64,000 nt of DNA from Candidatus Woesearchaeota archaeon (GTDB taxonomy: Archaea; Nanobdellota; Nanobdellia; Woesearchaeales; UBA11576): NCBI GenBank assembly GCA_018668595.1, contig JABJCP010000009.1:62735-126734 (forward strand), read 5' to 3'. Below the pieces are notes generated by a model. That model was not told the origin of the DNA. It searched no databases and saw nothing but the letters and a program-made list of their open reading frames with translations. The translations under genes and the position numbers were made by a program. This document shows, piece by piece, positions 3,873-51,720 of the stretch (position 1 is the stretch's first letter; every line of letters begins with the position of its first letter).

Positions 3873-4010
3873 AACTCTATAGAAATGGTAATCTATTTTA
3901 TAAAACTTTTGAACAACTTTTTTAAAACAACAATATGTCCTGTTTATGTGACTAAAAAACAAGATTTTACCAAAAATAATATATACTAATTATACTTCTA
4001 AATAATAAAA

Positions 4011-10601: not shown

Positions 10602-10624
10602 AAATTTTAATGGAGGAAATTAAA

Positions 10625-12064
10625 ATGAATGGAAATAAACGAATTGTTCAAGTGGGAATTAATGGTTTTGGTGTTATGGGTAGACTTATTTATAGATTAT
10701 TAGATAAACATCCTTTAATCGATGTTGTAAAAATAAATGATTTAGCACCTAAATCAACATTAGATTATTTGTTAAAATATGATTCTGTGCACGGAAGATT
10801 TGACAAAGGTTTGGAAAATATAGAATATTCTTCGGAAAGTAATCCGAAAAATATTTTTTGGCAAGGTGTAGATATAGTTGTAGACTCAACTCCTGATTTG
10901 AAAACATATGAGCATCTTAGTAAACATTTAGAACAGGGTGCAGAATATGTCATTCGAACTTCTCCACTTGGAGGAAATCTAGAAAAAACTCAAACAATTA
11001 TTCAAGGAGTTAATGATAATTCTCTCGACCTTGATAATTATAGAATACTTAGTTTGGCTTCTTGCACAACTAATTGTTTGGCGCCTCTAGTAAAGCTTGT
11101 AAAAGAGTTTTGTCAAAAAACAAGAAATTCTGTTGAAGATTTAGATTTTGTAACTGTTCACGCATATACTAATGATCAAGCAATTAAGGATTCTGCCCAT
11201 AGTTCTGATCTTCGTCGAGGTAGAGATGTTAATAATATTATTGAAACAGGTACTGGTGCTAGTTCTCAGATTGAATTATTTTTCCCAGAACTCAAAGGAA
11301 AAATATTTGGGACTGCTTATCGTGTTCCTGTTTCTGATGGTTCTGTTCTTGAACTAAGAGTTAAAACCAGAAATGGTTTTTCATTAGAGCAATTTAATAA
11401 TTTTGTAAAGCTTGCATCTGAAAATGATCTGAAAAATATTTTGCGTTATGAAACTCTTCCGCTTGTTTCTAGTGATTGCATTGATGATGCGCATACTTGC
11501 ATTTATCTTGAGTCTGCTGCGCAACAATTAAGCAATAATAAAGTCAAACTTGGTGCTTTGTATGATAACGAATTTGGTTACAGTAGTAAGATTGTTGATT
11601 TGATAAAATTAATTGAACAGAAAAAATTTGATCCAATCAGAACAACTTTTGAAGGGTACCGAACAGAAATGACTGTTGAGGCTGAAGGTCCTTATGGTCC
11701 TGATTGTGATGATTGGGATGAATTAAATTATCAAGATGTTGTAAAGTGTTTAAAAAATTTAGAAACAAAAAATAATTGGAAGTTCGAAGAAAATAAAACT
11801 GGAAAGGCACAAGGTGATGGAACTCTTTATACAAATCGAGGAATGTATAAAATTAAGATTGGTTGGTCTGGTAAGTATGTTACTTTGCTTGATCAAAAAG
11901 GAGATACTATGGATTTGAGCGGGGACAGAAAAAACCATGATTTTGTTAGAGGCGAAATTGGAAATGAATTCCATAAAGAGCTTCAAAAACGTGAGATCGA
12001 GTATACTGATGAAGATCGTGAATGGGATGAAGCAATGGAGATGAGTCCTGATGATCATGAGTGA
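10625..12064 (+). CDS. gap: Type-I glyceraldehyde-3-phosphate dehydrogenase with an unusual ~150-aa acidic C-terminal extension
   Basis: The NAD-binding N-terminus is RIVQVGINGFGVMGRL. The catalytic motif ASCTTNCLAP is present. The start at 10625 follows a GGAGG SD, and the track ATG at 10610 lies inside that SD. Confidence 0.7.
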   Translation: MNGNKRIVQVGINGFGVMGRLIYRLLDKHPLIDVVKINDLAPKSTLDYLLKYDSVHGRFDKGLENIEYSSESNPKNIFWQGVDIVVDSTPDLKTYEHLSKHLEQGAEYVIRTSPLGGNLEKTQTIIQGVNDNSLDLDNYRILSLASCTTNCLAPLVKLVKEFCQKTRNSVEDLDFVTVHAYTNDQAIKDSAHSSDLRRGRDVNNIIETGTGASSQIELFFPELKGKIFGTAYRVPVSDGSVLELRVKTRNGFSLEQFNNFVKLASENDLKNILRYETLPLVSSDCIDDAHTCIYLESAAQQLSNNKVKLGALYDNEFGYSSKIVDLIKLIEQKKFDPIRTTFEGYRTEMTVEAEGPYGPDCDDWDELNYQDVVKCLKNLETKNNWKFEENKTGKAQGDGTLYTNRGMYKIKIGWSGKYVTLLDQKGDTMDLSGDRKNHDFVRGEIGNEFHKELQKREIEYTDEDREWDEAMEMSPDDHE

Positions 12065-12110
12065 CTTTTTCTTTTTTTCTTTTCTTTTCATTTCTTTTCG
12101 CATTTCTTCC
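12065..12110 (+). terminator. Pyrimidine/oligo-T-rich tract downstream of gap
   Basis: The tract reads ctttttctttttttcttttcttttcatttcttttcg. Confidence 0.2.
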
Positions 12111-12277
12111 GACGAGAAAAACAATTAAGATAATTACGTAATATTATTCATTTTTATTCATTTATATCTTATATGTTCATCCAATAAAAGATTTTAAAGC
12201 AAAAATTCAATTTGATACTATTTTAAAGTAGTAATAAAACAAAAAGTTTATATATCATTAATAAGAAATAATAACTT

Positions 12278-12493
12278 ATGAAACACATCATGAGTGTAAG
12301 CCTTGATGAAGATACAATCATCAAACTTCGCGAACTGTTGAGATCAAAAAACTTCAGAAATAAAAGTCATGCAGTAGAGCAAGCTATACTGGGCATGCAT
12401 GAAAATTCTATTAATAATAAATCCGAAGATGTCACTTCTGACAATCTTAATTCAGATAATATTGATCCTAATTCTAGAGGTGATGATGAATGA
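12278..12493 (+). CDS. Small ribbon-helix-helix (CopG/Arc-like) protein; its stop overlaps the start of the first kinase gene (ATGA)
   Basis: MSVSLDEDTIIKLRELLRSKNFRNKSHAVEQAI has a beta-strand/helix/helix pattern. Confidence 0.4.
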   Translation: MKHIMSVSLDEDTIIKLRELLRSKNFRNKSHAVEQAILGMHENSINNKSEDVTSDNLNSDNIDPNSRGDDE

Positions 12494-15183
12494 AAGATGT
12501 TGAGAGAAATTTGGAAATAATAGTGGGAGATAACTTATTTGGGCGTCCGCATCAGTCAGAACATTTCACTTTTGAGTTTGAGGGAAAAACTTATCTTATT
12601 GCTGAAAAAAATTTATCAGATCCGGACGCAGTTTATTCTAAAGATGGACTCGCAAATTTATTTGGAACAGAGCATTATCAGATAGATGGAGTTATCAAAA
12701 CAAAAGATAAAACTTTGCTTAAAGTTAAACTGAGCTCTAAAGGTCCTGAATCCTTAGTTTCTAGCGATGGAAAAATGGATTGGTTTGGTTGTCCTCATCA
12801 AAAGTTATTTGAGATTATTACTGTGAGTGGTAAGGAATTTCTTTTAGCTATTCCCTCGGGAGAAGATCTAGAACGATTTTATGATATTACTGGCGAACCT
12901 GTTGATTTATTTGGAGGGCCACATGAAAGTGTGTTAGATATGTTCAAAATGGGTGATGAACCTTTTATTGTTGCAACAAAAGATGATCGAGATGCAGTAT
13001 ATTCCTCTGATGGAAAAAATAATTGGTTTGGCGGACCTCATTATCATATTTTTACACAGTTAAAAGAGATTGATGGAAAAAAATTTATCAAGGCACAGAA
13101 GGAAAAAGACGGTCCTGTTGCGATATACTCTTCTGATGGACAACTTCATTGGTTTAATGGTCCTTTTGGTAGAATATCTGGAGGAATAGTTTTTGTAGAT
13201 GGTCAACCTCTTTTAAAAGCGAGTCAGAGTACTTCTGGAAATTGTTTACTTTATACTTTAGAAGGAAGACCTAGTGGTCTTTTTGGTGGTCTTGAAAAAT
13301 ATTTTAATTGGCAATTTTTAGATTTTAATAATCTTGATTTTATTGTTGCTAAATTTGAAAAAAATGGAAAAGAGTATTTGGTTTCAAAAGAGTGCAAAAT
13401 AAATTTGTTTGGCGGACCGCACGAAAAAATACTTGGTTTACGAGATGTAGATAATCAAAATTATTTAGAAGTAATTAGAACTGAAAACAAAGCAATAAAC
13501 TATTTGATAAGTTCCGATGGTTTAGGTTTTACAAGTAAAGAAGATATTCTATGTTCTAATTTGGCTTCTGAGAAAAATTATAGTGATACTTATAAGCGTA
13601 TTTTAAGTTGGTTTAGAGAATTTAGTTCAGATATAGGTTTTATATCTAAAGAAATTGCTGATCTAATCGAACAAACTAATTTGTTGGATCATTCAAGAAG
13701 ATTATTTAATTTAACAGGAGAAGAACTTTTGAATGAGTTGGCAAAATCACCTGAAGATTTTATACTTGACGAGTCTGACAATAAAGAGGGTTTCAAAAAA
13801 GTTGAAGGTTATGAAGATTTAATAATGTTTAATAGAGTCGACTTATTTAAAGATTGGTTAAATTTAGTTATTGAATATTCTGATAATAAAACTGAGTCTT
13901 TAAGTTTAAAAGAGTCTATTTTAGCAATTCAAAGAATTCATTCCCAAGAAAGTCATGAACGGTTTGATGATTGTTTAAGTTATAATTTGAAATTACTTAG
14001 GCGTAATAGAAATAGTCTTGCTGAGATAACTGAATGTTCCAAATTAAGTTTTAATAATTATAATATATTAAAAAAACTTGGTCAAGGTGCTTTTAAGAAA
14101 GTTTATCTTGCAGAAGCAAAAGTAAGTCCTGGTCATTTTGTTGCTTTAAAGCAAATTGATCCTACTGCTTATTGGACTGATAGGATTCTTGAGCATTATG
14201 ATTCTGTTGATGATTGGGTTGGTGCAGAGCTTTCCATTAATCATCTTGCTAAGTTAAATTCTGATTTTGTGGCAAAGCCAGAAACTCCCTTCAAAGGAGA
14301 AGATGGTATTTTTTATTATGTTGAGCAGGCTTTCAAGGAAACGTTGAAAGATAAAGTTTCTCGAGAAGGAAAATGTGATTTATCTGAAGGATTAAAGATC
14401 GCTTTACAAATCGTAACTGGTTTAAGCGATTGTCATAATTATAAAAAACCTATTATTCATAAAGATTTAAAGCCTGATAATATTGGTCTTGATGAAAATG
14501 GAACTGTTAAGTTAACAGACTTTGGTAGTTTAGATTCTTTAAGTCATGATTTGTCTGATAGAGATTTATCAAATATTAACTACTCACCTGAAAAGGTTTT
14601 GAGAGGAGAAAAGAATGATGAAAAGACTAATATTTACTCAGTAGGTTTAGTTATGTTTTATGTTTTTACTGGAGACAACTTCTTTGATCCAGATAAAAAA
14701 GAAGATCGAAGAGAATATGTAAAAGGATTGTTACAATTAATAACTGAATATTCTAATTTATCTTGTGATGAAAAAGAAGATTTAATTAAAAAAAGTTTAG
14801 AGCATTTAGGAAGTAATGAAAAAGAAAAAGTATTTTATGCTTCGATTGGTAAAGTTATTCTGGCTTGTTTAGAAAGCGAATCTAAAGACTCTTATTTTAA
14901 TATGGAAGATGTGAGCACAGATCTTTCCAAATTAACTAATTATTTAGAAGGAAAATCAGAGGATAGTTCTGTTTTATGGGATAAATTCAGAGAACTTGAA
15001 CCATTTGGTTCTGAAGATAGTAAAGATAAAGACATTTTTGATGCATTTCTTGACGGAGAAGTAGAGCGTCAAAGACCTCTTGATGCATTAAGAAAATATA
15101 AAGGAGTTTTAGATGATTCTGATTACAGAACTATTGAAATAGCATTAAGCTTGTGCGAACATAATCAGCAGACTAAAAAGTAA
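12490..15183 (+). CDS. Ser/Thr protein kinase (eukaryotic-type) with an N-terminal ~45-aa 'FGGPH ... AVYSSDG' repeat domain (7-8 copies; beta-propeller-like)
   Basis: The Gly loop is LGQGAFKKVYLAE, the beta3 lysine is in FVALKQI, the catalytic loop is HKDLKPDNIG, DFG is present (KLTDFGS) and the APE-like motif is YSPE. Repeats include WFGCPHQKLF, LFGGPHESVL, WFGGPHYHIF and LFGGPHEKIL. Confidence 0.75.
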   Translation: MKDVERNLEIIVGDNLFGRPHQSEHFTFEFEGKTYLIAEKNLSDPDAVYSKDGLANLFGTEHYQIDGVIKTKDKTLLKVKLSSKGPESLVSSDGKMDWFGCPHQKLFEIITVSGKEFLLAIPSGEDLERFYDITGEPVDLFGGPHESVLDMFKMGDEPFIVATKDDRDAVYSSDGKNNWFGGPHYHIFTQLKEIDGKKFIKAQKEKDGPVAIYSSDGQLHWFNGPFGRISGGIVFVDGQPLLKASQSTSGNCLLYTLEGRPSGLFGGLEKYFNWQFLDFNNLDFIVAKFEKNGKEYLVSKECKINLFGGPHEKILGLRDVDNQNYLEVIRTENKAINYLISSDGLGFTSKEDILCSNLASEKNYSDTYKRILSWFREFSSDIGFISKEIADLIEQTNLLDHSRRLFNLTGEELLNELAKSPEDFILDESDNKEGFKKVEGYEDLIMFNRVDLFKDWLNLVIEYSDNKTESLSLKESILAIQRIHSQESHERFDDCLSYNLKLLRRNRNSLAEITECSKLSFNNYNILKKLGQGAFKKVYLAEAKVSPGHFVALKQIDPTAYWTDRILEHYDSVDDWVGAELSINHLAKLNSDFVAKPETPFKGEDGIFYYVEQAFKETLKDKVSREGKCDLSEGLKIALQIVTGLSDCHNYKKPIIHKDLKPDNIGLDENGTVKLTDFGSLDSLSHDLSDRDLSNINYSPEKVLRGEKNDEKTNIYSVGLVMFYVFTGDNFFDPDKKEDRREYVKGLLQLITEYSNLSCDEKEDLIKKSLEHLGSNEKEKVFYASIGKVILACLESESKDSYFNMEDVSTDLSKLTNYLEGKSEDSSVLWDKFRELEPFGSEDSKDKDIFDAFLDGEVERQRPLDALRKYKGVLDDSDYRTIEIALSLCEHNQQTKK

Positions 15184-15211
15184 AATTTGAAAAATATTTG
15201 AAACTAATAAA

Positions 15212-18118
15212 ATGAACACTAAACAAAAACTTTCAAAAGAGCAAAAAGAAAAAATCTTGGCTAAAGTAGAGAAAGCTAGGCGGGCAAAATTAGTTGATCG
15301 TCTATATGTTGATGGTATTTTTCATTTAAGTTCAGATGTAAGATCTAAAACTGCGGAGAGTTTAGGTGTTTTAGCAAGCATTAATGTGCGCGATTATGTG
15401 GATTTTTTTGAATTTAGTATAAAAAGTTCTAATTCGAGTGTGCAGGACAACGCTTCAAAAACTCTTGCTGATTTAGTTCATGTTGATAAAAATAAATTTC
15501 TTAAATTTTATGAGCGATTTATGTTTAAAAGAGGCTCACAGAGTATGGCCAAAACATTGAGTGAATTAGCAAAAGTTGATCCTTACAAATATTTCGAGTT
15601 ATGTGAAGAGGGAATGAATCATTCAAGCGATATGGGAAGAAGTTTTGTTGCAGTTGCATTAGGTGATATGGCTAAATTATTTCCTGATAAGTATATTGAA
15701 ATCTTTGAAAAGAATTTTGGTCGTGATCATGTATCAGGACCTTTAGTTAGTACTCTTGGCAATTTAGCGATTAATGATGAAAAGAAATATATTGAGTTTT
15801 ATAAACTAGCGATGAAAAATAAAAGTAAGTTTGTGAGGTGTAGTGCAGCTGAGACATTAGGTTCTTTAGCAAGTGTTAATCCTGAAAAATATGTTATGTT
15901 ATATTCTCTAGCAATAAATGATAAATCTGACTTTGTATTTACTGACGCAGCAAAAACATTGGGCAGTTTAGCAAAAGCAGATCTTAATTTGTATATTAAA
16001 TTGTTCAAAGAATGCATTAATAATAAAAAAGATCGCGTTAGAAAAGGTGTTGCTTTATCTCTTCGTTCATTATGTCCTGTTAATTATAGCGCGTATGTTG
16101 AATTGTTTGAATTAGGTATTGATAAAGGATTTAGTGTGGCAAGTTCTGTTGCAAGTACAATTGATTGTTTAGCAAATGCACAGTCTGAAGATATTTATGT
16201 TGAATTTTTAGACAAATGTTTGGATCATTCTGAAGAGGAAGTTAAAAGTAGTGCTTTAAGAACAGTAGGTAAATTAATTAATTCAAATCCTCAAACATAT
16301 TTCAAGTTACTCGAATCTGGTAATTATGCTGACTTTTTTAATTCTGATGCATTAGGTGTTTTTTTAATTAAATTAAGAGAAAAAGATCCTGAAATTTATT
16401 CTAAGCTACGTTCTAATTTAAGACAGGGTGTTGATTGGGGAGATGTTTTAGCAAGTATTTCGCCCAAACTATTTTTAGAAATGTATGATTCTAAGTACAA
16501 AATACATTCTCTTAATTCAAAAGTTAAGTTGAGTTCTTTAGCATTAACATTAACTGAAGAAAATTTGACCCCTATTAGAGATGAAGCTTACAAATTGTTT
16601 GAATCATATCTTGAGTCTAATTTTATTTTGACAGAAGATAGAACTCTTAAATCAGAAGAAGCAATTACTAAAGAATTGAAAGGTTTACTTTCTATTGAAA
16701 AATTGAATTATTTGAGGTTGACTGAAGTATTTAGGTCGAGTGATGTGAATTCAATGAATTTATTTGAAATAGATGATTTTAGTTTTCCAAATGCTAGAGA
16801 TCTTGATGAAATGGTCGAATGCGCACAGCGGTTTATTCCTAACTATTCAATTTTGTCAAGAGAATCCCGAGGAAGTTCAAAAATAGTTTACAAAGCAATT
16901 TATCAAAAACCAGGTTTTGATCCTGTCGAAGTTGCTCTGAAAATAGTAGATAGAACTGGTCTTCCTGATTCGTCTAATGTTGATGCATTAGTTGATCGTT
17001 TTGGTTTAGAAGATTTAACTAGGAAAGAAGTTAGCAAGTTGTTTAAATTAAATAAAAAAGGAATTGCCAGATTGATTGACTTTGGTAAACTTGCAGATGG
17101 AAAACTGTTTATTACAGAAGAGTTTATTCGAGGTAAAACTTTTAGAGAATATTTGGAAAAACGGGAAGAATTTAAATCTCTTTGCGATTTGTTAGATCAA
17201 AAGCGTTCTTCATTTTTTAATAAGTTTGTTAATGCAGAAATTGAATCTTTTGTTAATAATAATTTGACAGATTTTATTATGGGTATGAAACAGCAATTGT
17301 GTTTATCAAAATCGGATCATCAATATTTAAACCAATCTATTTTCAAAGGAAATCTTGTATTTTCTGATTCTAAGGTAGATAATTTTAAACCTAAAGATAG
17401 AGTTTGTTTATTATATTTACAGCTTTTCAGAGATTTAATAAATAATATTGAATATATTCAAGATTTAGGATTTATACATTTAGATATTAAACCAGAAAAC
17501 GTAATTATTAATCAAGATGTTTATTTAACAGATCTTCAAACAGTTATTGAAAAATTAAGGGCGAATGATTCGGTTAAAGGAGTTCATGGTTCAAGAAATT
17601 ATGCTATGCCTCAACTTATAGAAGGAGGCATTCCTGATTTTTCTGCAGATATTTATTCTCTTACAGTTATGTTGTTTGAAGCAATTACTGGAGAACTTCC
17701 TTATGATAAATATTCTTCAGATAAACAAGATAGTTTTCATAAAGAACGAATTGAACAATGGTCTGAGAAATCAAAATTAATTCATGAAAGATTTTCTTCA
17801 TTTAAAAATATTTTTAATAGAATGTTTGGAGAAGGGTCTTTTGGAACTTATTATGAATCAATAAATGAGTTTAAACAGGATTTTCAGCAAGCATTCAGTT
17901 CTATTTTTTTAAGTAATAATTACTTAATTGGAAATACTACTATGTTAGAGCAAGACATGAGATCAATTAACTTGTTAAGAAAAAAGTATGGTGCTAGAGA
18001 ATTAAGAGAAGTGCTTTTCGAAACTCAAGACATTCCTCTTACTGATGATGGATATTTTGATGAAATGGCAGGTTGTGAAACTGTAGATAATACTTTTGAT
18101 GATGAAGAATTTGAATGA
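15212..18118 (+). CDS. HEAT/PBS-lyase-like repeat protein fused to a degenerate protein-kinase domain (HLDIKPEN present, but DFG replaced by DLQ and the Gly loop degenerate)
   Basis: Repeats include ETLGSLASVNPEKYV and AKTLGSLAKADLNLYI. The kinase core reads HLDIKPENVIINQDVYLTDLQ. It is a paralog of 24239..26455 (shared YKAIYQKPGFDPxxVALKIVxRTxLPDSSNVD). Confidence 0.65.
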   Translation: MNTKQKLSKEQKEKILAKVEKARRAKLVDRLYVDGIFHLSSDVRSKTAESLGVLASINVRDYVDFFEFSIKSSNSSVQDNASKTLADLVHVDKNKFLKFYERFMFKRGSQSMAKTLSELAKVDPYKYFELCEEGMNHSSDMGRSFVAVALGDMAKLFPDKYIEIFEKNFGRDHVSGPLVSTLGNLAINDEKKYIEFYKLAMKNKSKFVRCSAAETLGSLASVNPEKYVMLYSLAINDKSDFVFTDAAKTLGSLAKADLNLYIKLFKECINNKKDRVRKGVALSLRSLCPVNYSAYVELFELGIDKGFSVASSVASTIDCLANAQSEDIYVEFLDKCLDHSEEEVKSSALRTVGKLINSNPQTYFKLLESGNYADFFNSDALGVFLIKLREKDPEIYSKLRSNLRQGVDWGDVLASISPKLFLEMYDSKYKIHSLNSKVKLSSLALTLTEENLTPIRDEAYKLFESYLESNFILTEDRTLKSEEAITKELKGLLSIEKLNYLRLTEVFRSSDVNSMNLFEIDDFSFPNARDLDEMVECAQRFIPNYSILSRESRGSSKIVYKAIYQKPGFDPVEVALKIVDRTGLPDSSNVDALVDRFGLEDLTRKEVSKLFKLNKKGIARLIDFGKLADGKLFITEEFIRGKTFREYLEKREEFKSLCDLLDQKRSSFFNKFVNAEIESFVNNNLTDFIMGMKQQLCLSKSDHQYLNQSIFKGNLVFSDSKVDNFKPKDRVCLLYLQLFRDLINNIEYIQDLGFIHLDIKPENVIINQDVYLTDLQTVIEKLRANDSVKGVHGSRNYAMPQLIEGGIPDFSADIYSLTVMLFEAITGELPYDKYSSDKQDSFHKERIEQWSEKSKLIHERFSSFKNIFNRMFGEGSFGTYYESINEFKQDFQQAFSSIFLSNNYLIGNTTMLEQDMRSINLLRKKYGARELREVLFETQDIPLTDDGYFDEMAGCETVDNTFDDEEFE

Positions 18119-18132
18119 ACTAAAAACAAAAA

Positions 18133-21100
18133 ATGAACATTGAAAAGATTTTAAACCAAGTTGAAAGAGAACGTCGAAAAATCTTAATCGGAGATATGTT
18201 TAGTTCTGGTCTTAGGGTTAAAGATCGTCATGCTAAAGAATCATTTGCAAACAAACTTCATAAACTTGCAGATATTGACTTGCCAAAATTTGTTGAACTT
18301 TACCAAAGAGAAATTAAAAAATTACATAGGGGTGGTTTGAATGATGTTTGTTGGGAGTTTAGTGTCAGTTCTAAAATCGCAAAGCAGCTTGGAGCATTAG
18401 TTAAAAGTGATATTGATCTTTATGAACAACTTTTCGAAGAAACTGTGAATAGAACGTATAAATTTCCAGACTCTAATCGAAAGGTTGCGACGGGGTGTAT
18501 TAGTACCTTGGAAACTGTTGCAGAAATAAATCAAGATCGATTTTTAGATATTTATCATGCTTGTCTTCATCAAGGTAATAAAAAAGTTAAGCAGAGCGCT
18601 TCATACTCAATAAAGCCTTTAGCAAAATTAAATCCTGAATTGTTTGAAGAGTTATTGACAGATCAAATATTAAATTACGGTTCGCAAGTTTTAGATTGGT
18701 CAATAGGTTTTTTACCGCGTCTAGCAGATATTAATATTGATAAAACTAAATATCTTTTAGAGCATTGTTTGAATTCAGAAAGTAAAAAATTAAAAAAATT
18801 TGCAGTTCTCGAACTTAATTCTTTAGCAGTTAAATTTCCAGAGTCATTTTCTCAACATTTGCTTGATGTTTTCAAAAATAAGTATGGTAAAGAAGTTCAT
18901 GAATCTGCATCAGTGAGTTCATTAGTAGAAGTAGCAGTACATTCAAATATTGATCCTGTTGCTTTTGCAATTAGTTGTTCTGATTTTGATACTGGAGAAG
19001 ATCCTTTAGGTTATCAGGTTAGAATGGAATTTATTAGTTATTTGTTCAAGGAAGATCCTAGAAAAACCTATGATTTGATAAAATATAAGTATGATCTTGA
19101 TAAAAACCTGGCAGATTTAATAAGTCGGTCAGCAAAAGACGATGATTTTGGTGCTGTTTTTAAAGATGAATTAAGCAGAAGAGATATTGATATTCTGGAT
19201 CCTGGCACTTCAAAAATCATTTTTGAAAATTTAGAGGGCATAATAGAACAAGATTCTCAGTTAGGTGTTGAACTTTTTAATTTCCTTGAAGAGAATGGTT
19301 CTGAAGATGTTAAAAAGAACTTATTTAATTATGTGCATCTTTTAATCGCATTTGATTTGGATAAATTCGAATCAGTTTTTAATCATACCCTTAATCAATC
19401 TACAAAAGAAACAAGTAATAGCATTTACTCTCATTTGGGTAAAGTTGCTGTTGTTAATACAGAAAAATATGTTGAACTTTATAAAAAAGCAACTTGCAAA
19501 ACTGTTGATCATTCTATTAGAATAGATATTATAGAAACTCTTGGTTCTCTTGCAAAAGTAGATCCTGATAAATATATTGAACTCTTTGAAGAGAACTTAA
19601 CGCGAGACCAATTTATTAGGTCCTCAACTTTCGAAACTCTTCACAATCTTGCAGATTCTCGACCAGAAAAGTATGTTGAACTTTGTGATATTGGTATGAG
19701 TGATAACTCTAGTTATGTTTATCGAGATACAATAAGATCTTTAAAACCATTAGCAAAAATTGATCCTGATAAATTCAAAAAATATGTTGTTGAAGGTTTT
19801 AATAGTAGAAAAACTGAAGTTGCGCCTTTTGCAGCAGAACTCATTCCTTTACTTGCACCTATTGATCCAAAACTATGCACAGAACTTGCAAAAAAAGCTT
19901 TAAGAAAAAAAGATTGGCAGATCAAGATAAAATCAGCAGATGCACTTGAAGCACTTGCAGATAATTATTTAGAAAATAAGATCCAGCATTTTAAAGATGA
20001 TTGTAATAAATTCATAAAAAAATATCTCCAATCAAAATATGTTCAAACAAAAGAGGGAGAAGATAGATCAGAACAAGACGTAACAGATGAACTAATTGAA
20101 TTGATACAAAAAAAAGATCTTGATTACAAATCAATGCTTGAATCTTTAGGGTATGAAAAAGCAGAAAATCTAGATGAACTAGTCGAACTTTCTAAAATTA
20201 AATTTGGTTCATATAAATTAATAAAAAAACTAGGCCAAGGTGCTTTCAAATCTGTTTATTTGGCAGAATCTACTTTGAGTTCAGGATTGTTTTTCGCTCT
20301 TAAAAAAATTAATCCGTCGCAATTTGGAGATGAACTAATAAGTCAGCATTATGATTCTTTTGAGGATTGGCTTGATGCTGAACTTCATATTACTAGACTT
20401 GCAATGGTTGATTCAAAATATGTTTCAAGACCTCAGCTTCCAAGAAAAGATGATGCTGGATTCTTTTACTTAACTGAGCAACCATTCAAAGAAAATTTAA
20501 AAGAAAAATTGCAAAATCAAAAAATCAATTTAATTGAGTCATTCAATTTAATTATTCAAATAGTTGAAGGGCTAGAAGATTGTCATAATTTTTACCAAGG
20601 TCCAATTATTCATAAGGATCTTAAACCAAGTAACATTGGAATAGATGAACTTGGACATATTAAACTTACTGATTTCGGTAGTTTAGAAACAATGAGTCGC
20701 GATCTTAGCGACGGAGATCTTTCAAATATTCTTTATTCTGCTCCTGAGGTTTTACAAGGAGAAAAAACAACCATTAAAAGCAATATTTGGACTGTTTGTA
20801 ATTTAATGTATAATATTCTAACGGGCGATGATTTGTTTGCTCCTGAAAATAATTCAAAACCTAAATCTACAGATGAAAACAGAGAAACATATGCGAAAAT
20901 TTCTTTAGAAAAAATGATGAAAACTTCAGAACTTGGTGTTAAAGACAAAGTCGTTTTTTTAAGAGATAAACTTTGCGAAAACTATAATCAAGAGTCTGTT
21001 GAATATAGAACATTAACTATTCTTGCAGGAGTTATTGCAGGAGGACTTTTTGAAAATCCTGAAGAAAGAGTTTACAATTCTATGACTGAATTAAAAACTG

Positions 21101-21423
21101 ATTTACTTCACACTTTAACTTTTTATGAAACTAATCCTGAACAAGAACATTATCCTAAATTGCAAGTTGATCGTCATGAAGAATGGTTTGGTCTTTCAGA
21201 TGAAGAACTTTCGCGACTTAATGAAAATAAAAATCCTGCAACAGGAATAAATTATCATGATTCTGTAAAAGAACTAGTGAATCTAAGAGAGAAAAATCCG
21301 TTGTTTGTGATTGGTAAATACAAGCAGTCAATGTCTGATGAAGATTATAACTTGTTAGAAACAAGATTAAAGCGATTATTAAATTATGAAGCACCTTTTG
21401 GTGTTGTAGGTGAGGATGATTAA
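18133..21423 (+). CDS. HEAT-like repeat protein fused to a Ser/Thr protein kinase (appears active)
   Basis: LGQGAFKSVYLAE, FFALKKI, HKDLKPSNIGIDELGHIKLTDFGS and YSAPE are all present. It is a paralog of 12490..15183. Confidence 0.75.
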   Translation: MNIEKILNQVERERRKILIGDMFSSGLRVKDRHAKESFANKLHKLADIDLPKFVELYQREIKKLHRGGLNDVCWEFSVSSKIAKQLGALVKSDIDLYEQLFEETVNRTYKFPDSNRKVATGCISTLETVAEINQDRFLDIYHACLHQGNKKVKQSASYSIKPLAKLNPELFEELLTDQILNYGSQVLDWSIGFLPRLADINIDKTKYLLEHCLNSESKKLKKFAVLELNSLAVKFPESFSQHLLDVFKNKYGKEVHESASVSSLVEVAVHSNIDPVAFAISCSDFDTGEDPLGYQVRMEFISYLFKEDPRKTYDLIKYKYDLDKNLADLISRSAKDDDFGAVFKDELSRRDIDILDPGTSKIIFENLEGIIEQDSQLGVELFNFLEENGSEDVKKNLFNYVHLLIAFDLDKFESVFNHTLNQSTKETSNSIYSHLGKVAVVNTEKYVELYKKATCKTVDHSIRIDIIETLGSLAKVDPDKYIELFEENLTRDQFIRSSTFETLHNLADSRPEKYVELCDIGMSDNSSYVYRDTIRSLKPLAKIDPDKFKKYVVEGFNSRKTEVAPFAAELIPLLAPIDPKLCTELAKKALRKKDWQIKIKSADALEALADNYLENKIQHFKDDCNKFIKKYLQSKYVQTKEGEDRSEQDVTDELIELIQKKDLDYKSMLESLGYEKAENLDELVELSKIKFGSYKLIKKLGQGAFKSVYLAESTLSSGLFFALKKINPSQFGDELISQHYDSFEDWLDAELHITRLAMVDSKYVSRPQLPRKDDAGFFYLTEQPFKENLKEKLQNQKINLIESFNLIIQIVEGLEDCHNFYQGPIIHKDLKPSNIGIDELGHIKLTDFGSLETMSRDLSDGDLSNILYSAPEVLQGEKTTIKSNIWTVCNLMYNILTGDDLFAPENNSKPKSTDENRETYAKISLEKMMKTSELGVKDKVVFLRDKLCENYNQESVEYRTLTILAGVIAGGLFENPEERVYNSMTELKTDLLHTLTFYETNPEQEHYPKLQVDRHEEWFGLSDEELSRLNENKNPATGINYHDSVKELVNLREKNPLFVIGKYKQSMSDEDYNLLETRLKRLLNYEAPFGVVGEDD

Positions 21424-24189
21424 ATGACCAAAAAAACAAATTCAACAACCAATCAAGATTTAATGAATCTCCTCCTGCCTATTTTTGAAGAGTTTGATCT
21501 AATTAGAGAATCATCTGATTTTTATTTGACCACTAAAAAAAATTTAAATAAATATATTTCTGAACAGAAAGCAAGAGTAGCATTTACTTTTAATTTTCCT
21601 GAAATCGCAATTAATTGTTTGGATGATTATTTATCTACTTTAAATATTGATTCTATCGATTCATTTGATTTGCATAGTGTTGTGGATTATGCAGGTTATT
21701 GTATTGAACTAAATAAACTAAAAAAAGCAGAGCCTTATGTTGTTTTACTTGCAGATAAATTAAATTTGTTAACAAATAATGGGAACTTCAAAGTAGCATT
21801 ATCTTTTTTAAATAATTTAAATGAAGAAAAATTAAATATTTTATCTAATTTTAACTTTTCTGAGTTAATTTCAAATCAAATAGATTTAATGCCTTTGGGC
21901 ATCACAAAATCAGAATATTATTCATCCGAATCATTTTTTAATTTGCTTTATAATATGGATAAATTTGATAAATTATTATGTGAAACCAAATCGCTTGATG
22001 ATAAAATTTCTGATTTAGAGAAATCAGAAAATTTAAATTATTATTTTAGTTTAAGAATACTTCAAGCAAAACAGTATATGCGATTAAATTTAAATGATGA
22101 GTTCAAAGAAATTATCTCGGATTTAGAACTTAAATCAGCTGGTTTTTCAAATAAATTTTCAGATAGAAGTCATTTTGATTTTTTAAGTGTTATAAAATTA
22201 AAAAAAACTTTTGATGTTGATTATGATTGTAGAACTGATATTTTATCAGTTGTAGATTTAGTTAAAGATAATTATGAAGATGTTGATGATTATTGGCATA
22301 TTTCATCATTTTTTGAAGAAATTGTGAATTTAACCAGGAGTGAGTTTCCTGAGTTTGCAAAAAATGTTTTTAATAATTTTTTAAATTCTGGGCCTGAGAA
22401 ATATTTTGGACATATAAAAAAAGAACTAGATAAAGCTAAAGGATTAACTAATTTTTTATGGAAATGTCGTGATTATTTAGGCAAGGAGTATAGCTTAGAA
22501 AAAATTAATTTTATTAATTCTATTTTATTAAATAAAGATATTTTATTTAATCAATCTTATTTAAAATTTGCATGTAAAATTAGTCATGAATTGGGGTTAG
22601 AACATGATTTCAATAATCATTTAACCGAATTAAATAAATTGATGCGTTATCCTAAAGAAGAGTTTGATATGAGCAAAAAACTTGTTGCAGAAAATTTAAG
22701 ATATGAAACATTAAATGATCTGGCAGATATTTTTAAAGCAAGATCTGATTTTAATCAGGCATCTAATGCTTATCGAGAGTTAATTAATTTGTATAAATTA
22801 AAAATTGATTTTACAAAGAAAGACTTTAGTCGTAATTGGCACAAAGATGACAATCAAAGAAAATTTGATGAATTATCTATTAAATTGAAAAAATTAAAAA
22901 TGAATTATTCTAATAAATTTTCTAAACATCAACTTAGTAATTGGAACAAGGAAGTGAATAGAACACAAGACCAAATTAATAATTTGAAACAAATTAATGC
23001 ACATATTTCTATTAATTTAAAAGCATTTAATTCAATGGATTTAATTAGGTCTTTACATTTTACTTATTTGCGTAATGCAGAATGTTTGTTAGCTTCTAAT
23101 AATATTAATGCTGCTGTTGAATCATATTTGGAAATGAAAAATTTGTTTTACTCTTGGAGTGTTAAAGAAGAAACTGCTGCATTTTGGATTGGAACAAGAG
23201 CAGTATTACTTTCAAAAATATTTAAAACGACAGAAGATCTTCCATCATTAAACTTCATGCTGGACAACAACATAGTTCTCGAGGGTTACACAATTACAAA
23301 AAAACTCGGCAAAGGTGCTTTCTCTGATGTTTATTTAGGAAAAAATGTAGTCGATGAAATGGACGAAGCTGTCAAAATAATTCAAATTTCTGATTTTGGT
23401 AAACAACTTATTGAAGAATCAGGCATGACACAGGAACAATTTATAAGTAAAGAACTTCAAGTCAGAAAACTTAATTCTTTAAGAAGTCATAATATTGTTT
23501 TATATCATAATGTTGCAAAAGTAAAAGATAAGGTTGTTATTTTTATGGAACCTTTTGAGATGACATTAGAAACTGCACTGATTGAAAATAATCTTACTTA
23601 TTTTGAAAAGGTTAACTGTTTTGCAGACATTGCAGCTACATTAACTGAGTGTTATGATAAATTGGGAATTATTCATAAGGATTTGAAGCCGGTTAACGCA
23701 GGTTTGGATTCTAATAAAGAAATAAAGCTTACTGATTTTGGTAGTATTGATTCTTTTTCTGCAAAAAATTATTCTGATTTAAGTAATATTGAATATCGTG
23801 CTCCTGAAATTTGGGAGGGTGAAAAAGCAACTTTTTCGTCGAGTATTTGGGCGATGGGCGGTATTTTTTTCAGAATGCTTACAGACAAAAAACTGTTTGA
23901 GCCAGATAATTTAGATAAAAACAAAGATCGTAAAGAGTACGAAACTTATTTTAAGAATAGAGATTGGCAAAGCTTAGAAGAGCAAGATTCTAAATATATA
24001 GCAGATTCAATGATTCATCCTAATGTTAGATTTATTCCGGGCAGTGTTTATGCTGATATTACTTTTATGATTCAAACTTGTTTAACCTATGATCCTAAAA
24101 AAAGAGAAGATAGATTTAGAGCGTTTTTAGATTATTTCAATGAAACCTATGATATAAATGAGTTATTGAACTTAGAAAATACTAATTAA
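21424..24189 (+). CDS. Helical-repeat (TPR-like) protein fused to a Ser/Thr protein kinase
   Basis: LGKGAFSDVYLGK, HKDLKPVNAGLDSNKEIKLTDFGS and YRAPE are present. The start abuts the preceding stop (TAAATG). Confidence 0.7.
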   Translation: MTKKTNSTTNQDLMNLLLPIFEEFDLIRESSDFYLTTKKNLNKYISEQKARVAFTFNFPEIAINCLDDYLSTLNIDSIDSFDLHSVVDYAGYCIELNKLKKAEPYVVLLADKLNLLTNNGNFKVALSFLNNLNEEKLNILSNFNFSELISNQIDLMPLGITKSEYYSSESFFNLLYNMDKFDKLLCETKSLDDKISDLEKSENLNYYFSLRILQAKQYMRLNLNDEFKEIISDLELKSAGFSNKFSDRSHFDFLSVIKLKKTFDVDYDCRTDILSVVDLVKDNYEDVDDYWHISSFFEEIVNLTRSEFPEFAKNVFNNFLNSGPEKYFGHIKKELDKAKGLTNFLWKCRDYLGKEYSLEKINFINSILLNKDILFNQSYLKFACKISHELGLEHDFNNHLTELNKLMRYPKEEFDMSKKLVAENLRYETLNDLADIFKARSDFNQASNAYRELINLYKLKIDFTKKDFSRNWHKDDNQRKFDELSIKLKKLKMNYSNKFSKHQLSNWNKEVNRTQDQINNLKQINAHISINLKAFNSMDLIRSLHFTYLRNAECLLASNNINAAVESYLEMKNLFYSWSVKEETAAFWIGTRAVLLSKIFKTTEDLPSLNFMLDNNIVLEGYTITKKLGKGAFSDVYLGKNVVDEMDEAVKIIQISDFGKQLIEESGMTQEQFISKELQVRKLNSLRSHNIVLYHNVAKVKDKVVIFMEPFEMTLETALIENNLTYFEKVNCFADIAATLTECYDKLGIIHKDLKPVNAGLDSNKEIKLTDFGSIDSFSAKNYSDLSNIEYRAPEIWEGEKATFSSSIWAMGGIFFRMLTDKKLFEPDNLDKNKDRKEYETYFKNRDWQSLEEQDSKYIADSMIHPNVRFIPGSVYADITFMIQTCLTYDPKKREDRFRAFLDYFNETYDINELLNLENTN

Positions 24190-24238
24190 TGATTATTTAA
24201 TATTAAAAAATGATTAAAAAAAATTAAATAACTAAAAA

Positions 24239-26455
24239 ATGACAGAAGAAAATAAAAAAAATAACTCCAAAAAAGATTCAAGTAGAGATTTTAAACTTTC
24301 AAATCCTATTAAAAACATTCAAGATTTAAAAAATGAATCTAAAGAACTTAAATATTTAATAAAACATTTTGAAGAATTTAATCTTGATAAACCCGAATTA
24401 GAAGATTATGTTGTCAAAGTTTTAGATTCTAATGCGAGTATTTTAACTAAGAATATTTTAATAGAAGGAGATATTGATAAAAATTTAGTTGATGTAGTGA
24501 ATGATTCTAAGTTATTGTCTAATTTCTTAAAAAAGTTTGAACAATACTCTTTATTTTTTAGAGATAAGTTAGATCTACAATATGGGTTTAGAATTTCAAC
24601 AACTAAAGAATGGGGGGAATCATTAGAGCAGTTAGGTGTGGTTTTAACTGCAGATAATGAGATTAATTTTAAGAAGGAAGGATATGTGTCTAATGTTGCA
24701 CATAAACAATTTTTAGTTAATCTTAGAGATGATATTATTTCCAACCCAGAAACACTAGATTCTGATTATTATGGTTTGTTTAATGAGTTAATAAGAAAAT
24801 CTCATAATAAAGAGAGAATAGAGGACAGAGCATTACATTCTCTTTATTATTTAGGGGTAGACTTTGATTCAAAATACTCTTTGGAAAAAATTACTGATTT
24901 GTTACTTGGTTATAAAGATCATGAGATTTTAAAAAAATTTGGACAATCAGATGTCGCGTATAGTCCACCCGTGCTCGATCAAGTATTTAGGAAAATTATT
25001 AAATATATAAAACAAGGAGACTGTAATTCAATTAATGATTGTATTGAATGTGCTTCAATTAACATTTCCAACTACCAATTAATCTCAAAAATAGCAGAAG
25101 GTACTTCGAAGCGAGTCTACAAAGCTATTTACCAAAAACCAGGTTTCGATCCTATCACAGTTGCATTAAAGATCGTCAATAGAACTGATTTGCCTGATTC
25201 ATCTAATGTTGATAATCTTATTCAACGTTTTGGTTTGGAGGATATTACAAAAGGGGAAATTAATGCCATGTTGAAAACAAAAAATCCTTCTGTAGCTTCT
25301 ATTTATGATTTTGGAAAAACTAACAAAGGTAAACTGTACATTGCAGAAGAGTTTGTTGAAGGTGTTAGTTTAAGAGATGTAATAAATCAAAGACCTGTTC
25401 TTGAATCTGTTTTTAATAATTTATTTTCAATGAGTATTTCTGATGAAGAATTAGATTCAGGAAGGATAGATCTATCTGATCTTTTGCCAGATTCTTTTAA
25501 TTCGATTGAAGAAGAAAAATTAGTTGTGTCTGCGAAAGAAAAAAATTGCAGCAGATCTGAATTAAAAGATAAACTGCTTACTAAAAAACAAAATTTATAT
25601 TCTCAACGAGCATTATCCAATACTCGTTTTTCATCAAAATTTACATTTTCTAAAGAGAAATCAATTATGCGATATGTTGTCAAAGATGGAATTGTTTCTG
25701 AAGAAGACTATTTGACAAAAATTCCTGAGGATTTGGCAAGACTCAGTTTTTATTTTTCATTATTTGAAAAAATTTTAAAATCAGTCTATAAATTACATGA
25801 AGATAATTTAGTTCATTTAGATATTAAACCTGAAAATATAATTATAGGGGATGTTGTTAAATTGACTGATTTTCAAACTGCAGGTATTTTAGAAGATTTT
25901 TATGTTTCTGGTGCAAAAGGCGTGCATGGTTCAAAGCAGTATGCAGGTCCTGAATTGTTTTGGGATTCGAGTCCAGGAATACATTCAGATATTTATTCGT
26001 TAGGTATTATTTTTTATGAACTTCTTACGGGAGAACTTCCTTTTGGACCATATGATTCGAGAGAAAAAGCAAAAAAAGATCATGAATTAAATCATGAAGA
26101 TAATTTAGAAAAAGCTCTTGATAAATTAAACTTTTACAAGTCTGATGAAGTTAAATTTCTTTTTGAAAAAGTTTTGACTGATGATTCGACGAGTAGATAT
26201 GATTTAATGTCTACTTTTATTAGTCATTTTAATATGGTTCAGAATAGTTTATTTCAGGATTTTAGAGTGGATGTTGAAGGAATTCCTGTATTTGATGAAG
26301 ATTTGATAACATTATTTGAATTAAGACGTAAGTATGGTTTTGATGACCTTAATAAAATATTAAAATACACCAAGCATTTAGATATGACTGATCATGTACC
26401 TCTGCATGAGCCATCAGGAGGGGTTGATTATGGTGATTGGGATGATGAAGAATAA
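24239..26455 (+). CDS. Protein-kinase-like protein (HLDIKPEN present; DFG replaced by DFQ)
   Basis: The core reads HLDIKPENIIIGDVVKLTDFQTAG. It has an acidic C-terminus (DYGDWDDEE) and is a paralog of 15212..18118. Confidence 0.65.
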   Translation: MTEENKKNNSKKDSSRDFKLSNPIKNIQDLKNESKELKYLIKHFEEFNLDKPELEDYVVKVLDSNASILTKNILIEGDIDKNLVDVVNDSKLLSNFLKKFEQYSLFFRDKLDLQYGFRISTTKEWGESLEQLGVVLTADNEINFKKEGYVSNVAHKQFLVNLRDDIISNPETLDSDYYGLFNELIRKSHNKERIEDRALHSLYYLGVDFDSKYSLEKITDLLLGYKDHEILKKFGQSDVAYSPPVLDQVFRKIIKYIKQGDCNSINDCIECASINISNYQLISKIAEGTSKRVYKAIYQKPGFDPITVALKIVNRTDLPDSSNVDNLIQRFGLEDITKGEINAMLKTKNPSVASIYDFGKTNKGKLYIAEEFVEGVSLRDVINQRPVLESVFNNLFSMSISDEELDSGRIDLSDLLPDSFNSIEEEKLVVSAKEKNCSRSELKDKLLTKKQNLYSQRALSNTRFSSKFTFSKEKSIMRYVVKDGIVSEEDYLTKIPEDLARLSFYFSLFEKILKSVYKLHEDNLVHLDIKPENIIIGDVVKLTDFQTAGILEDFYVSGAKGVHGSKQYAGPELFWDSSPGIHSDIYSLGIIFYELLTGELPFGPYDSREKAKKDHELNHEDNLEKALDKLNFYKSDEVKFLFEKVLTDDSTSRYDLMSTFISHFNMVQNSLFQDFRVDVEGIPVFDEDLITLFELRRKYGFDDLNKILKYTKHLDMTDHVPLHEPSGGVDYGDWDDEE

Positions 26456-27369: not shown

Positions 27370-28284
27370 CTATAAATTTATTCCAAATATTGGACTTGCT
27401 GCTTCAAAGATTTTCACAGATAAATTATTCAGCACGTGTACAACTCTTATTTCTTTTTTTGGTACTTTCTCGAGCAGTGATAGGCCTTTTTTAATAAATG
27501 CTTTTTTCCCTTCAATTATATCTTTTGCAGTTTCTATATCGAAGTCATAATAAAGATTATACATTTTTTCAAATAATGTATTGATATTCTTATACAGTTT
27601 GAGTGTTTCTGGACTTAATTTAAATTTTGGATCTTTCAACTCGAGTAAATATCTGCATACATATTTGTAATCATCTGCAATATCTTCTAGTCTTTGAATT
27701 AATAAATACAGGAGTGTTGGTTTTTCAAACATTGATGTTCCTTTTACATTCACAACTCTGCAACAATACATATAGAATTTATTTTGTACATTTTCTAGTT
27801 CTGAAATTCCATCTAGTTCGTCATATTTTTGTGTAGCAATTGCATCATATGATTCTTCTGCAAGTGATTTAGTAATTAAAAACAACCTACGCATGCTTTG
27901 TTCAAATTGCGAGTCATCTATTCTCATTATGCTTTGTAGAATAACATAGTTTTTGCCTTGGTCTGATATTTCAAAACCCATCATTAAGGGCAGTCGTCTT
28001 TGAATATCTTTAATAACAGAACTATCATCATAATTTACTTTTATTTCTGTAACTCCTTTTCTATATAGATTAAATAATGTTCTTGATATTAATCTGTGTG
28101 GTTTTTTTACTGTTACTTCTGCTTTCATTTCAAGTGCTTTTGTATCAGAACTTATTGTAAGATATCCTTTTTCTTCTAAGATTTCAACTTCATCTCCTGC
28201 ATTTAGATTTTTTTGTTGTATCCATTTTGCAGGTAGACTTACAGTCATTACACTTCCGCCTTGTTTTACTAGTTTTCTTTTCAT
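27370..28284 (-). CDS. AbrB/SpoVT-type swapped-hairpin domain fused to a PhoU-like helical domain (putative regulator)
   Basis: The N-terminus is MKRKLVKQGGSVMTVSLPAKWIQQKNLNAGDEVEI. The remainder is helical. Confidence 0.4.
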   Translation of the reverse strand: MKRKLVKQGGSVMTVSLPAKWIQQKNLNAGDEVEILEEKGYLTISSDTKALEMKAEVTVKKPHRLISRTLFNLYRKGVTEIKVNYDDSSVIKDIQRRLPLMMGFEISDQGKNYVILQSIMRIDDSQFEQSMRRLFLITKSLAEESYDAIATQKYDELDGISELENVQNKFYMYCCRVVNVKGTSMFEKPTLLYLLIQRLEDIADDYKYVCRYLLELKDPKFKLSPETLKLYKNINTLFEKMYNLYYDFDIETAKDIIEGKKAFIKKGLSLLEKVPKKEIRVVHVLNNLSVKIFEAASPIFGINL

Positions 28285-28551: not shown

Positions 28552-28566
28552 ATGGAGGGGCATAAA

Positions 28567-47221: not shown

Positions 47222-47224
47222 ATA

Positions 47225-47854: not shown

Positions 47855-47909
47855 AAAAGTTAAACAAATTAAATTAAACAAATTAAATAATTGTGGATGG
47901 TGGTTTATT

Positions 47910-48170: not shown

Positions 48171-48242
48171 TTGAGTTGTTAAGCACAGGGATAATTAAGT
48201 AATTAATTATTGGATTTTTTATTAAAATTATTAGGTGGTATT

Positions 48243-49520: not shown

Positions 49521-49563
49521 CTCACTAAGAATTTGATTTTTTTCATTTTGAGGATTGACTAGA

Positions 49564-50253: not shown

Positions 50254-50254
50254 A

Positions 50255-51194: not shown

Positions 51195-51197
51195 AAA

Positions 51198-51608: not shown

Positions 51609-51720
51609 AATATTTTCTTTTCTCCGTCGTAAATTTAAAAAATCTGAGTTAAAGATTTCTAAAAAAGTTCTAAAAGATTTAGATTCAGAACTCAAAGAAT
51701 TAGATTCTGAATATGGCGAT

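Follow-up and report, generated by a model that had tools for sequence, protein, structure and literature searches.

The closest described relatives of the gene array analysed here are the bacterial Hanks-type serine/threonine kinases, in which a PknB/StkP/PknA-like core is fused to TPR, WD40 or HEAT repeats in Acidobacteria, Planctomycetes and myxobacteria. The array lies at positions 12278-26455 on the forward strand of a 64-kb window (the whole stretch of DNA that was analysed, 64,000 nucleotides of a Candidatus Woesearchaeota archaeon contig) and comprises five kinase genes, designated K1 to K5 in gene order, behind a short gene for a ribbon-helix-helix (RHH)-like protein. Its products have the fold, the sequence motifs and the fusion to repeats in common with the bacterial enzymes. 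PASTA-type kinases consist of an N-terminal kinase, a membrane span and sensor domains, whereas the array proteins have N-terminal repeats, a C-terminal kinase and no membrane span. The array also differs from the bacterial repeat kinases in that the N-terminal domains of K1 (a repeat), K4 and K5 belong to no Pfam family, in the presence of a common ECA...NY segment, and in the gathering of five such genes in one unit of a DPANN-labelled genome. The overall picture that emerges, to which we assign a rough probability of 0.6, is that of a single transcription unit encoding five soluble Hanks-type Ser/Thr kinases that would form a cross-phosphorylating network.

Archaeal Ser/Thr phosphorylation is poorly understood. 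The eukaryotic-type protein kinases (ePKs) of Sulfolobus islandicus form auto- and cross-phosphorylation networks (PMC5682000). With several typical ePKs in one archaeon, the Sulfolobus islandicus and S. acidocaldarius proteins (SiRe_2030/2056, ArnC/ArnD) are the model for the mechanism proposed below. No specific sequence relationship between them and K1-K5 was found, crenarchaeal proteins being absent among the best homology matches, and they have been treated as a genome-wide set. In the literature searched we found no description of a Woesearchaeota-restricted family with the segment that precedes the kinase domain, of a clade with D-x-Q/E in place of DFG, of the lobe insert of K2 and K5, of the K1 β-repeat, or of recurring arrays beside AbrB-PhoU and Lrp/AsnC genes, and no literature on Ser/Thr phosphorylation in DPANN archaea was found. 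The initial annotation of the locus had called the arrangement unusual in prokaryotes. That is overstated, as repeat-domain Ser/Thr kinases are common in bacteria and the external matches of the array are bacterial TPR and PASTA kinases.

Layout and domain structure of the array

Six co-directional open reading frames (ORFs) make up the array, and the opposite strand of 12278-26455 carries no competing long ORF.

12247-12254, forward strand: TTTATATA, candidate TATA box of archaeal type; it ends 23 nt before the start codon of the RHH-like gene
12278-12493, forward strand: RHH-like gene, 71 aa, opens the unit; stop codon and K1 start share the 4 nt ATGA
12490-15183, forward strand: K1, 897 aa
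15212-18118, forward strand: K2, 968 aa
18133-21423, forward strand: K3, 1096 aa
21424-24189, forward strand: K4, 921 aa; begins directly behind the K3 stop (0 nt between them)
24239-26455, forward strand: K5, 738 aa

The ORF coordinates, sizes (738-1096 aa) and common orientation of the kinase genes match the tight packing that the initial annotation had described. The intergenic distances are, in order, -4 (RHH-like gene/K1), 28, 14, 0 and 49 nt, and the three internal spacers contain neither a T5 run nor a TATA-like word. A perfect copy of TTTATATA, one of 6 occurrences on the forward strand of the window, stands at 12247-12254 and may act as the promoter element. T-rich tracts follow the stop codon of the upstream GAPDH gene (12066-12078) and a T-run lies directly after the K5 stop (26462). 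A Shine-Dalgarno (SD)-like GGTGA is found ahead of K1 and K4 only; no such motif stands in the A-rich sequence before K2, K3 and K5. The G+C content is uniform at ~29% throughout the window, in which scans for Rfam families and tRNAs found nothing. The gene spacing and the motifs suggest, with good confidence, that the RHH-like gene and K1-K5 constitute one transcription unit of ~14.2 kb.

The 71-aa protein is matched at aa 6-37 by the Pfam model RHH_1 with 16.7 bits (E 0.007; gathering score 20.5), is annotated by JGI as an Arc/MetJ-type RHH regulator and has no PDB sequence match. No counterpart is listed upstream of the arrays at three related loci (L007, L009 and L010, described below). 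Of the small RHH gene with overlapping stop and start that had been claimed, the overlap is confirmed, and the family assignment stays below threshold. For K1-K5, the maximum 19-residue Kyte-Doolittle mean is ≤1.23, no segment resembles a membrane helix or a signal-peptide core, and the proteins are predicted to be soluble and cytoplasmic.

All five kinase gene products match the Pfam Pkinase family (PF00069), with 98, 67, 96, 117 and 108 bits for K1 to K5 against a gathering threshold of 31.7, in agreement with the ePK-like domains proposed for them initially. The closest solved structures in a PDB profile comparison are StkP, PknB and PknA, followed by MARK and B-Raf (E 2.5e-33 to 1e-24). 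Motifs were located by alignment of the domains to a PASTA-type bacterial kinase, and the coordinates were verified by translation.

K1, forward strand: G-loop 14077-14106; HKDLKPDN 14458-14481; TDFG 14515-14526
K2, forward strand: ESRGSSKIVY 16862-16891; VALK 16934-16948; HLDIKPEN 17477-17500; TDLQ 17528-17539
K3, forward strand: LGQGAF, HKDLKPSN and TDFG
K4, forward strand: LGKGAF, AVK, HKDLKPVN and TDFG
K5, forward strand: IAEGTSKRVY 25091-25120; VALK 25163-25177; HLDIKPEN 25814-25837; TDFQ 25865-25876

K1, K3 and K4 are canonical, with LG(Q/K)GAF, (A/V)(L/V)K, the αC Glu, HKDLKPxN, TDFG and (S/A)PE. The β3 Lys, αC Glu, HxD Asp, downstream Asn and DFG Asp are kept in all five proteins. The HxDxKPxN pattern and P+1 loops of the G[ST]xxYxAPE type, which are characteristic of Ser/Thr kinases, place the array with that type. 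An assignment to aminoglycoside phosphotransferases (APH) only, the refuting outcome considered in the initial annotation, is not borne out, since K1-K5 have no APH match at E ≤ 0.1; other atypical kinase families are likewise sub-threshold (ABC1, E 0.021 for K3; Bud32, 17.6 bits against a cut-off of 125). To judge from these profiles and motifs, K1-K5 are almost certainly Hanks-type protein kinases.

The N-terminal domains are more diverse. That of K2 matches Pfam HEAT (53.6 bits, threshold 23.5) and HEAT_2 (38.3 bits, threshold 27.7). The K3 N-terminus has no direct Pfam HEAT match and is assigned by homology to K2, whose N-terminus aligns with two blocks of it (BLASTP, E 1.6e-21 and 7.6e-18), and to the HEAT-kinase of L009 (E 6.5e-50). 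K1 begins with eight β-repeats of 39-43 aa (~42) spanning aa 16-347 (nt 12535-13530), followed by a linker. The repeat signature, (W/L)FGGPH...DG..F(L/I).A......(A/V).YSSDG, has no Pfam or PDB match, and an AlphaFold2 (AF2) model of the domain, built with its only homolog, is all-β (pLDDT 62, pTM 0.51), for which a propeller-like fold is plausible. The N-terminal domain of K4 (~610 aa) is all-helical in an AF2 model computed with no alignment (pLDDT 42.5); it has no Pfam TPR match at E ≤ 0.1 and no PDB sequence match. The N-terminal ~260 aa of K5 belong to no Pfam family and recur in P0054 (L009) and in a partial gene of L008. Thus, among the N-terminal domains named in the initial annotation, the HEAT solenoids (K2 by Pfam, K3 by homology) and the β-repeat of K1 hold, and the TPR-like character of the K4 domain is not supported.

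BLASTP comparisons relate the genes to one another. K1 and K3 are 39% identical over 406 aa, comprising the kinase and the C-terminal tail, K4 is 35-36% identical to K1 and K3 over the kinase only, and K2 and K5, which had been recognized at the outset as mutual paralogs, are 34-36% identical over ~480 aa (E 1.4e-67; 34% over 482 aa in BLASTP). Since the K3 N-terminus is K2-like and its kinase and tail are K1-like, K3 is a chimera. Just before the G-loop, K1-K5 and their relatives have a common segment, (I/V)EC(A/S).I.I.NY.I, and they therefore represent one family, split into DFG and D-x-Q/E clades. A neighbour-joining tree, rough and without support values, separates a DFG clade (K1, K3, K4 and the L007 kinase) from the D-x-Q/E clade. 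As far as these alignments indicate, the array seems to have expanded locally, its domains being shuffled in the process, and it consists of tightly packed, probably co-transcribed Hanks-type kinase genes with N-terminal repeat domains.

Probable catalytic competence of K2 and K5

K2 and K5 carry the DLQ/DFQ motifs and degenerate Gly loops that the initial annotation had pointed out, and translation confirms them as well as the DFG of the other three proteins. The DLQ of K2 is at nt 17531-17539 and the DFQ of K5 at nt 25868-25876. With a one-glycine loop and DLQ or DFQ, both proteins lack the canonical GxGxxG loop and the DFG glycine that K1, K3 and K4 have, and K2 has MPQ where APE is expected. 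In many kinases, these glycines contribute to the positioning of ATP and to the flexibility of the DFG motif. A GxGxxG loop and a DFG glycine are common, but catalytic competence is defined by other residues. From the β3 Lys to HxD, K2 has 179 aa and K5 has 215, as against ~100 in K1, K3 and K4, the difference being an inter-lobe insert of ~80 aa in K2 and ~115 aa in K5. Because of this insert, K2 and K5 are each matched in two pieces by Pfam and by the PDB profile. The C-termini of both proteins are acidic.

Relatives of these two proteins come from an exhaustive HMMER profile search with the K2/K5 alignment against 1.84 billion representative proteins. P0054 (895 aa; L009, in the Woesearchaeota metagenome-assembled genome GCA_043813525.1) combines a K5-like N-terminal domain with a DVQ kinase. 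P0057 (977 aa; L008) combines HEAT repeats with a DLQ kinase and is the external protein most similar to K2. The members of a sister group (P0092, P0145, P0120 and P0185) have GDLE or DFE as the motif and continue with a membrane span and a long C-terminal region. Among ~280 kinase domains from the top 150 matches of this search, D-x-Q is confined to these archaeal proteins, and the D-x-Q/E clade has been found so far in Woesearchaeota-labelled contigs and contigs syntenic with them. Word-index protein searches with K5 and K3 returned bacterial TPR and PASTA kinases with ~28% identity over the catalytic core; they missed paralogs within the window (K1 was not returned for K3), and absence of orthologs there is therefore weak evidence. 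A contig scan of GTDB species representatives with K5 gave two unrelated bacterial kinases (25-27% identity) and no close relatives. All 80 loci from a metagenome contig scan with the clade alignment were ordinary kinases, 25-42% identical over short segments, and none was used, because the back-translated patterns (HRDLKPEN-like, GVHGSxxY) were too generic.

All five catalytic residues are kept in each aligned member of the clade (L008, L009, L010, P0092, P0120 and P0185). At 25-36% identity, such conservation points to selection on the active site. The D-x-Q/E motif and the large insert recur in relatives at other loci, which points to constraint rather than decay, and the motif change looks like a derived functional state across the clade. 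As all residues of phosphotransfer are retained, K2 and K5 are most likely active, and they are predicted with reasonable confidence to be catalytically competent. Being non-RD kinases (HLD), K2 and K5 may be regulated differently from K1, K3 and K4.

The initial annotation had instead viewed the array as active/degenerate pairs, with K2 and K5 as catalytically dead pseudokinases that act as scaffolds for K1, K3 and K4 or control them allosterically. The replaced DFG glycine, the single remaining glycine of three in the G-loop, the MPQ of K2 in the APE position and the splitting of the kinase domain by a large insert are all compatible with this proposal, as is the HEAT domain common to K2 and the adjacent canonical kinase K3. 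In the working definition of a pseudokinase, the β3 Lys, the HRD Asp or the DFG Asp is lost (PMC12599244). K2 and K5 retain all three and are therefore not pseudokinases by the usual criterion; only the DFG glycine and two G-loop glycines are changed. They resemble eukaryotic and bacterial pseudokinase families (ActPs, CP1, DYD, DLHK) in the degraded G-loop and altered DFG, and differ from them in keeping the residues on which the definition rests (PMC12599244). The retention of the Lys, both Asp, the αC Glu and the Asn in K2, K5 and all clade relatives, which are ~25-36% identical, would be unexpected without selection on the active site. Furthermore, the gene order in the window (DFG, DLQ, DFG, DFG, DFQ) is not paired.

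What stands is a weaker form of the partnership idea. A K5-type gene lies directly before a HEAT-type gene of the same clade in both L008 and L009, an adjacency that would fit obligate partners. However, both members of each pair belong to the D-x-Q/E clade, so that these loci show no canonical partner adjoining the pair, although L008 is a 4.6-kb fragment. Catalytically dead K2 and K5 are thus considered unlikely.

A better candidate for a pseudokinase in the window is a solitary kinase-like gene outside the array.

40360-41472, forward strand: K6, 370 aa, 14 kb downstream of the array; Pkinase 67 bits

In K6, HGSIEPGN replaces the HRD motif, with loss of the catalytic Asp (nt 41074-41082), and DYT replaces DFG. 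Its N-terminus is J-domain-like (Pfam DnaJ, E 7e-4; weak HscB/DnaJ NCBIfam matches). By its sequence, K6 is the only gene in the window that falls under the definition given above, through the lost HRD Asp.

Conserved neighbours and further explanations

Downstream of the array are genes whose homologs accompany related kinases elsewhere.

27370-28284, reverse strand: AbrB/SpoVT and PhoU-like regulator (AbrB-PhoU), outside the transcription unit; conserved neighbour of the array
28552-29049, forward strand: Lrp/AsnC-family regulator (Pfam and NCBIfam matches), 38% identical to a 154-aa protein of L009
30152-31399, reverse strand: AAA_14/DUF4143 ATPase, PADLOC candidate defence family PDC-S01 (E 2.4e-117)
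L007 4287-5546, reverse strand: AAA_14/DUF4143 homolog, 26% identical to the ATPase of the window
L007 12138-13079, L009 5512-6468 and 14929-15837 (two copies), and L010 3086-4021, reverse strand: AbrB-PhoU copies, identified by homology

Pfam MazE_antitoxin matches five of five AbrB-PhoU homologs and PhoU matches three of the five. One source annotation of the AbrB-PhoU gene reads phosphate uptake regulator PhoU, and its profile has no significant PDB sequence match.

The synteny comparison suggested in the initial annotation was productive, in that related kinase arrays with a neighbour of the AbrB-PhoU type were found in four lineages including the window. L008, the 4.6-kb fragment, carries a partial K5-type gene (DMQ) and then a HEAT-type gene (DLQ). 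In L009, a K5-type gene (DVQ) overlaps the following HEAT-type gene (VRD, DLE) by 4 nt; the kinase pair is followed by a convergent AbrB-PhoU gene, 35.5% identical to 27370-28284, and then by the Lrp/AsnC-like gene (154 aa). L010 has a divergent AbrB-PhoU gene, three tandem kinases, all with GDLE, and then an AsnC gene. In L007, the AAA_14/DUF4143 ATPase is followed by a K1-like repeat-kinase, beyond which lie a TPR protein of 681 aa and, in convergent orientation, an AbrB-like gene. Thus, a regulator of the AbrB-PhoU type is within one gene of the array in all four lineages (window, L007, L009 and L010), and an Lrp/AsnC regulator is also near it in three of the four. Arrays in the related genomes contain one to three kinases, and the five-gene array of the window is the largest seen.

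The K1-like kinase gene of L007 is split by an apparent frameshift, and a membrane span follows the kinase. At L007 5762-10070, a 454-aa β-repeat ORF overlaps the kinase ORF by ~56-59 nt in a different frame, and the repeats cross the junction. The region probably represents a frameshift, either an assembly error or real, in a single ~1450-aa protein with repeats, kinase and membrane span.

The ATPase also bears on a second explanation, in which the array is a conflict system, either an anti-virus defence whose repeats sense invaders and whose kinases shut the cell down, or a set of host-manipulating effectors of an episymbiont. The repeat-sensor and enzyme architecture recalls many immune proteins, and the family is lineage-restricted, with a copy number of 1-5 and shuffled domains. 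The PDC-S01-type ATPase lies 3.7 kb downstream, and its homolog directly flanks the K1-like gene of L007. The PADLOC models PD-T4-6, mad6 and MkoA match the kinase domains, with E values down to 2.5e-37, and the array does have the Ser/Thr kinase core in common with anti-phage kinases (PD-T4-6, MADS MAD6, Mokosh MkoA, BREX PglW, Stk2). However, these matches concern the generic kinase core only and are far below the NCBIfam cut-offs (MAD6, 41-85 bits against 460; PglW, 16-33 bits against 990). The array scores are 5- to 60-fold below the cut-offs, and the PADLOC matches were rejected as evidence of defence.

The surroundings of the array also argue against a conflict system. The scanned ORFs, which are most but not all of those of at least 100 aa in the window, include none of the partner genes of the anti-phage kinases, and none of those around the array matches a nuclease, methylase, integrase or toxin family. 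tRNA genes are absent from the window, and its G+C content is uniform. The flanks consist of housekeeping genes (GAPDH, inositol monophosphatase) and of regulators whose linkage is conserved across lineages. The kinases themselves have no hydrophobic segment that would fit a membrane helix or a typical signal-peptide core. No hypervariability is visible among four assemblies that are 99.98-100% identical, although, being so nearly identical, these give no information on diversifying selection. A conflict system is accordingly regarded as improbable.

Departure from protein phosphorylation in the D-x-Q/E proteins is a third explanation. The atypical metal-binding motif and G-loop and the large lobe insert could accompany small-molecule phosphorylation, or AMPylation or glutamylation as in SelO and SidJ. 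PMC12599244 reviews cases in which kinase folds have been repurposed. Against such chemistry, the HxDxKPxN catalytic loop and the G[ST]xxYxAPE segment are intact, StkP and PknB are the best structural relatives by sequence, and no APH match was obtained at the threshold given above, with ABC1 and Bud32 again sub-threshold; this explanation is very doubtful.

Finally, eukaryotic contamination or an assembly chimera, which the 'eukaryotic-type' kinase domains and the HEAT repeats common in eukaryotes might suggest, can be dismissed, as the genes overlap or abut and have no introns, the source contig of 636-677 kb carries archaeal-type regulators, the composition is uniform, and four independent assemblies from different samples agree with the array DNA at 99.98-100% identity (Logan SRR3719565, GCA_018659545.1, JGI 3300028274 and ENA ERZ27250245). 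K2 and K3 are 100% identical to NCBI entries named 'protein kinase [Candidatus Woesearchaeota archaeon]', and the neighbouring genes encode TrmB, Lrp/AsnC, DUF134 and AbrB-PhoU regulators, archaeal in character, as well as GAPDH and an inositol-monophosphatase-family protein. The initial annotation had reached the same view of contamination partly from SD sites; the view holds, and the SD sites are present only at K1 and K4.

Several other features of the window were recorded. Directly before the kinase unit, the type I GAPDH homolog (10610-12064, forward strand, 484 aa) has Pfam GAPDH domains that end near residue 316, followed by a C-terminal extension of ~150 aa without assignment. A receiver-GGDEF diguanylate cyclase (2823-3962, reverse strand) and a protein with MshEN, a c-di-GMP-binding domain (4543-5112, forward strand), suggest cyclic-di-GMP signalling, unexpected in a DPANN-labelled archaeal genome. 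At 46526-62509 (forward strand), ~17 co-directional ORFs of 100 aa or more form a long cluster, and the majority of those scanned have no Pfam match. The matches obtained are a transglutaminase-like protein (49555-50253), a RimK-type ATP-grasp enzyme (55678-56643) and a ThiF/E1-like enzyme (60959-62509), and the cluster may encode a peptide- or protein-modification pathway.

Proposed mechanism and significance

The array proteins have the same layout, in which an N-terminal domain (eight-repeat β, HEAT, HEAT, helical and the ~260-aa K5 domain, in gene order) is followed by the pre-kinase segment and a C-terminal kinase. The mechanism that we infer combines co-transcription, catalytic activity, partner binding, cross-phosphorylation and a regulator link. 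The N-terminal domains would bring in partners or substrates, or would sense a state, and the catalytic domains would phosphorylate Ser/Thr residues of these partners and probably also of one another. Expression from one mRNA would fix the proportions of a small cross-phosphorylation network, in which K2 and K5 (HLD, D-x-Q) would be active and under a regulation different from that of the HKD/DFG kinases. The AbrB-PhoU, Lrp/AsnC and RHH proteins are candidate targets or co-regulators. Presumably, a smaller ancestral set, which probably included a pair of K5-type and HEAT-type genes, grew into the present array through tandem duplication and the swapping of domains.

Several points weigh against a cross-phosphorylating network encoded in a single unit. 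The organism is uncultured and the kinase activity is predicted. Given the glycine changes, phosphotransfer by K2 and K5 could be weak, altered or absent. The case for a single operon is built from spacing and motif inspection only, and T-runs are frequent in this AT-rich genome (29% GC), 53 being located within the coding span. Confidence is low for the structural models of the N-terminal domains of K1 and K4 (pLDDT 62 and 42). The synteny case is drawn from four lineages only. PP2C phosphatases and FHA-domain proteins are the usual partners of Hanks kinases, and neither type of gene was found among the scanned ORFs of the window, which are most of those of at least 100 aa.

A more far-reaching possibility, which is speculative and would be something of a surprise, is an undescribed Woesearchaeota module in which the K5-type and HEAT-type D-x-Q/E pair, linked to AbrB-PhoU and Lrp/AsnC regulators, has a new regulatory or catalytic mode and serves phosphate- or host-dependent physiology. 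If so, the altered motif, the G-loop and the insert would underlie a mode such as obligate heterodimerization or an atypical preference for nucleotide or metal, the module would control the phosphate- or host-dependent physiology of ultra-small symbiotic archaea, and the five-gene expansion would be a lineage-specific rewiring of it.

Repeat-fused Hanks kinases are a common prokaryotic theme, and the array of five Ser/Thr kinases adds detail to a known category rather than founding a new one. Within that category, the D-x-Q/E clade is a natural test of the roles of the DFG and G-loop glycines, and the conserved linkage to AbrB-PhoU and Lrp genes leads to a testable hypothesis of signalling from kinase to transcription factor. 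DPANN genomes are generally small and are thought to retain essentials. A 14-kb unit of five kinases, together with a pseudokinase-like sixth gene, would be a large outlay for such an organism, and would suggest that protein phosphorylation is a major layer of control in this organism.

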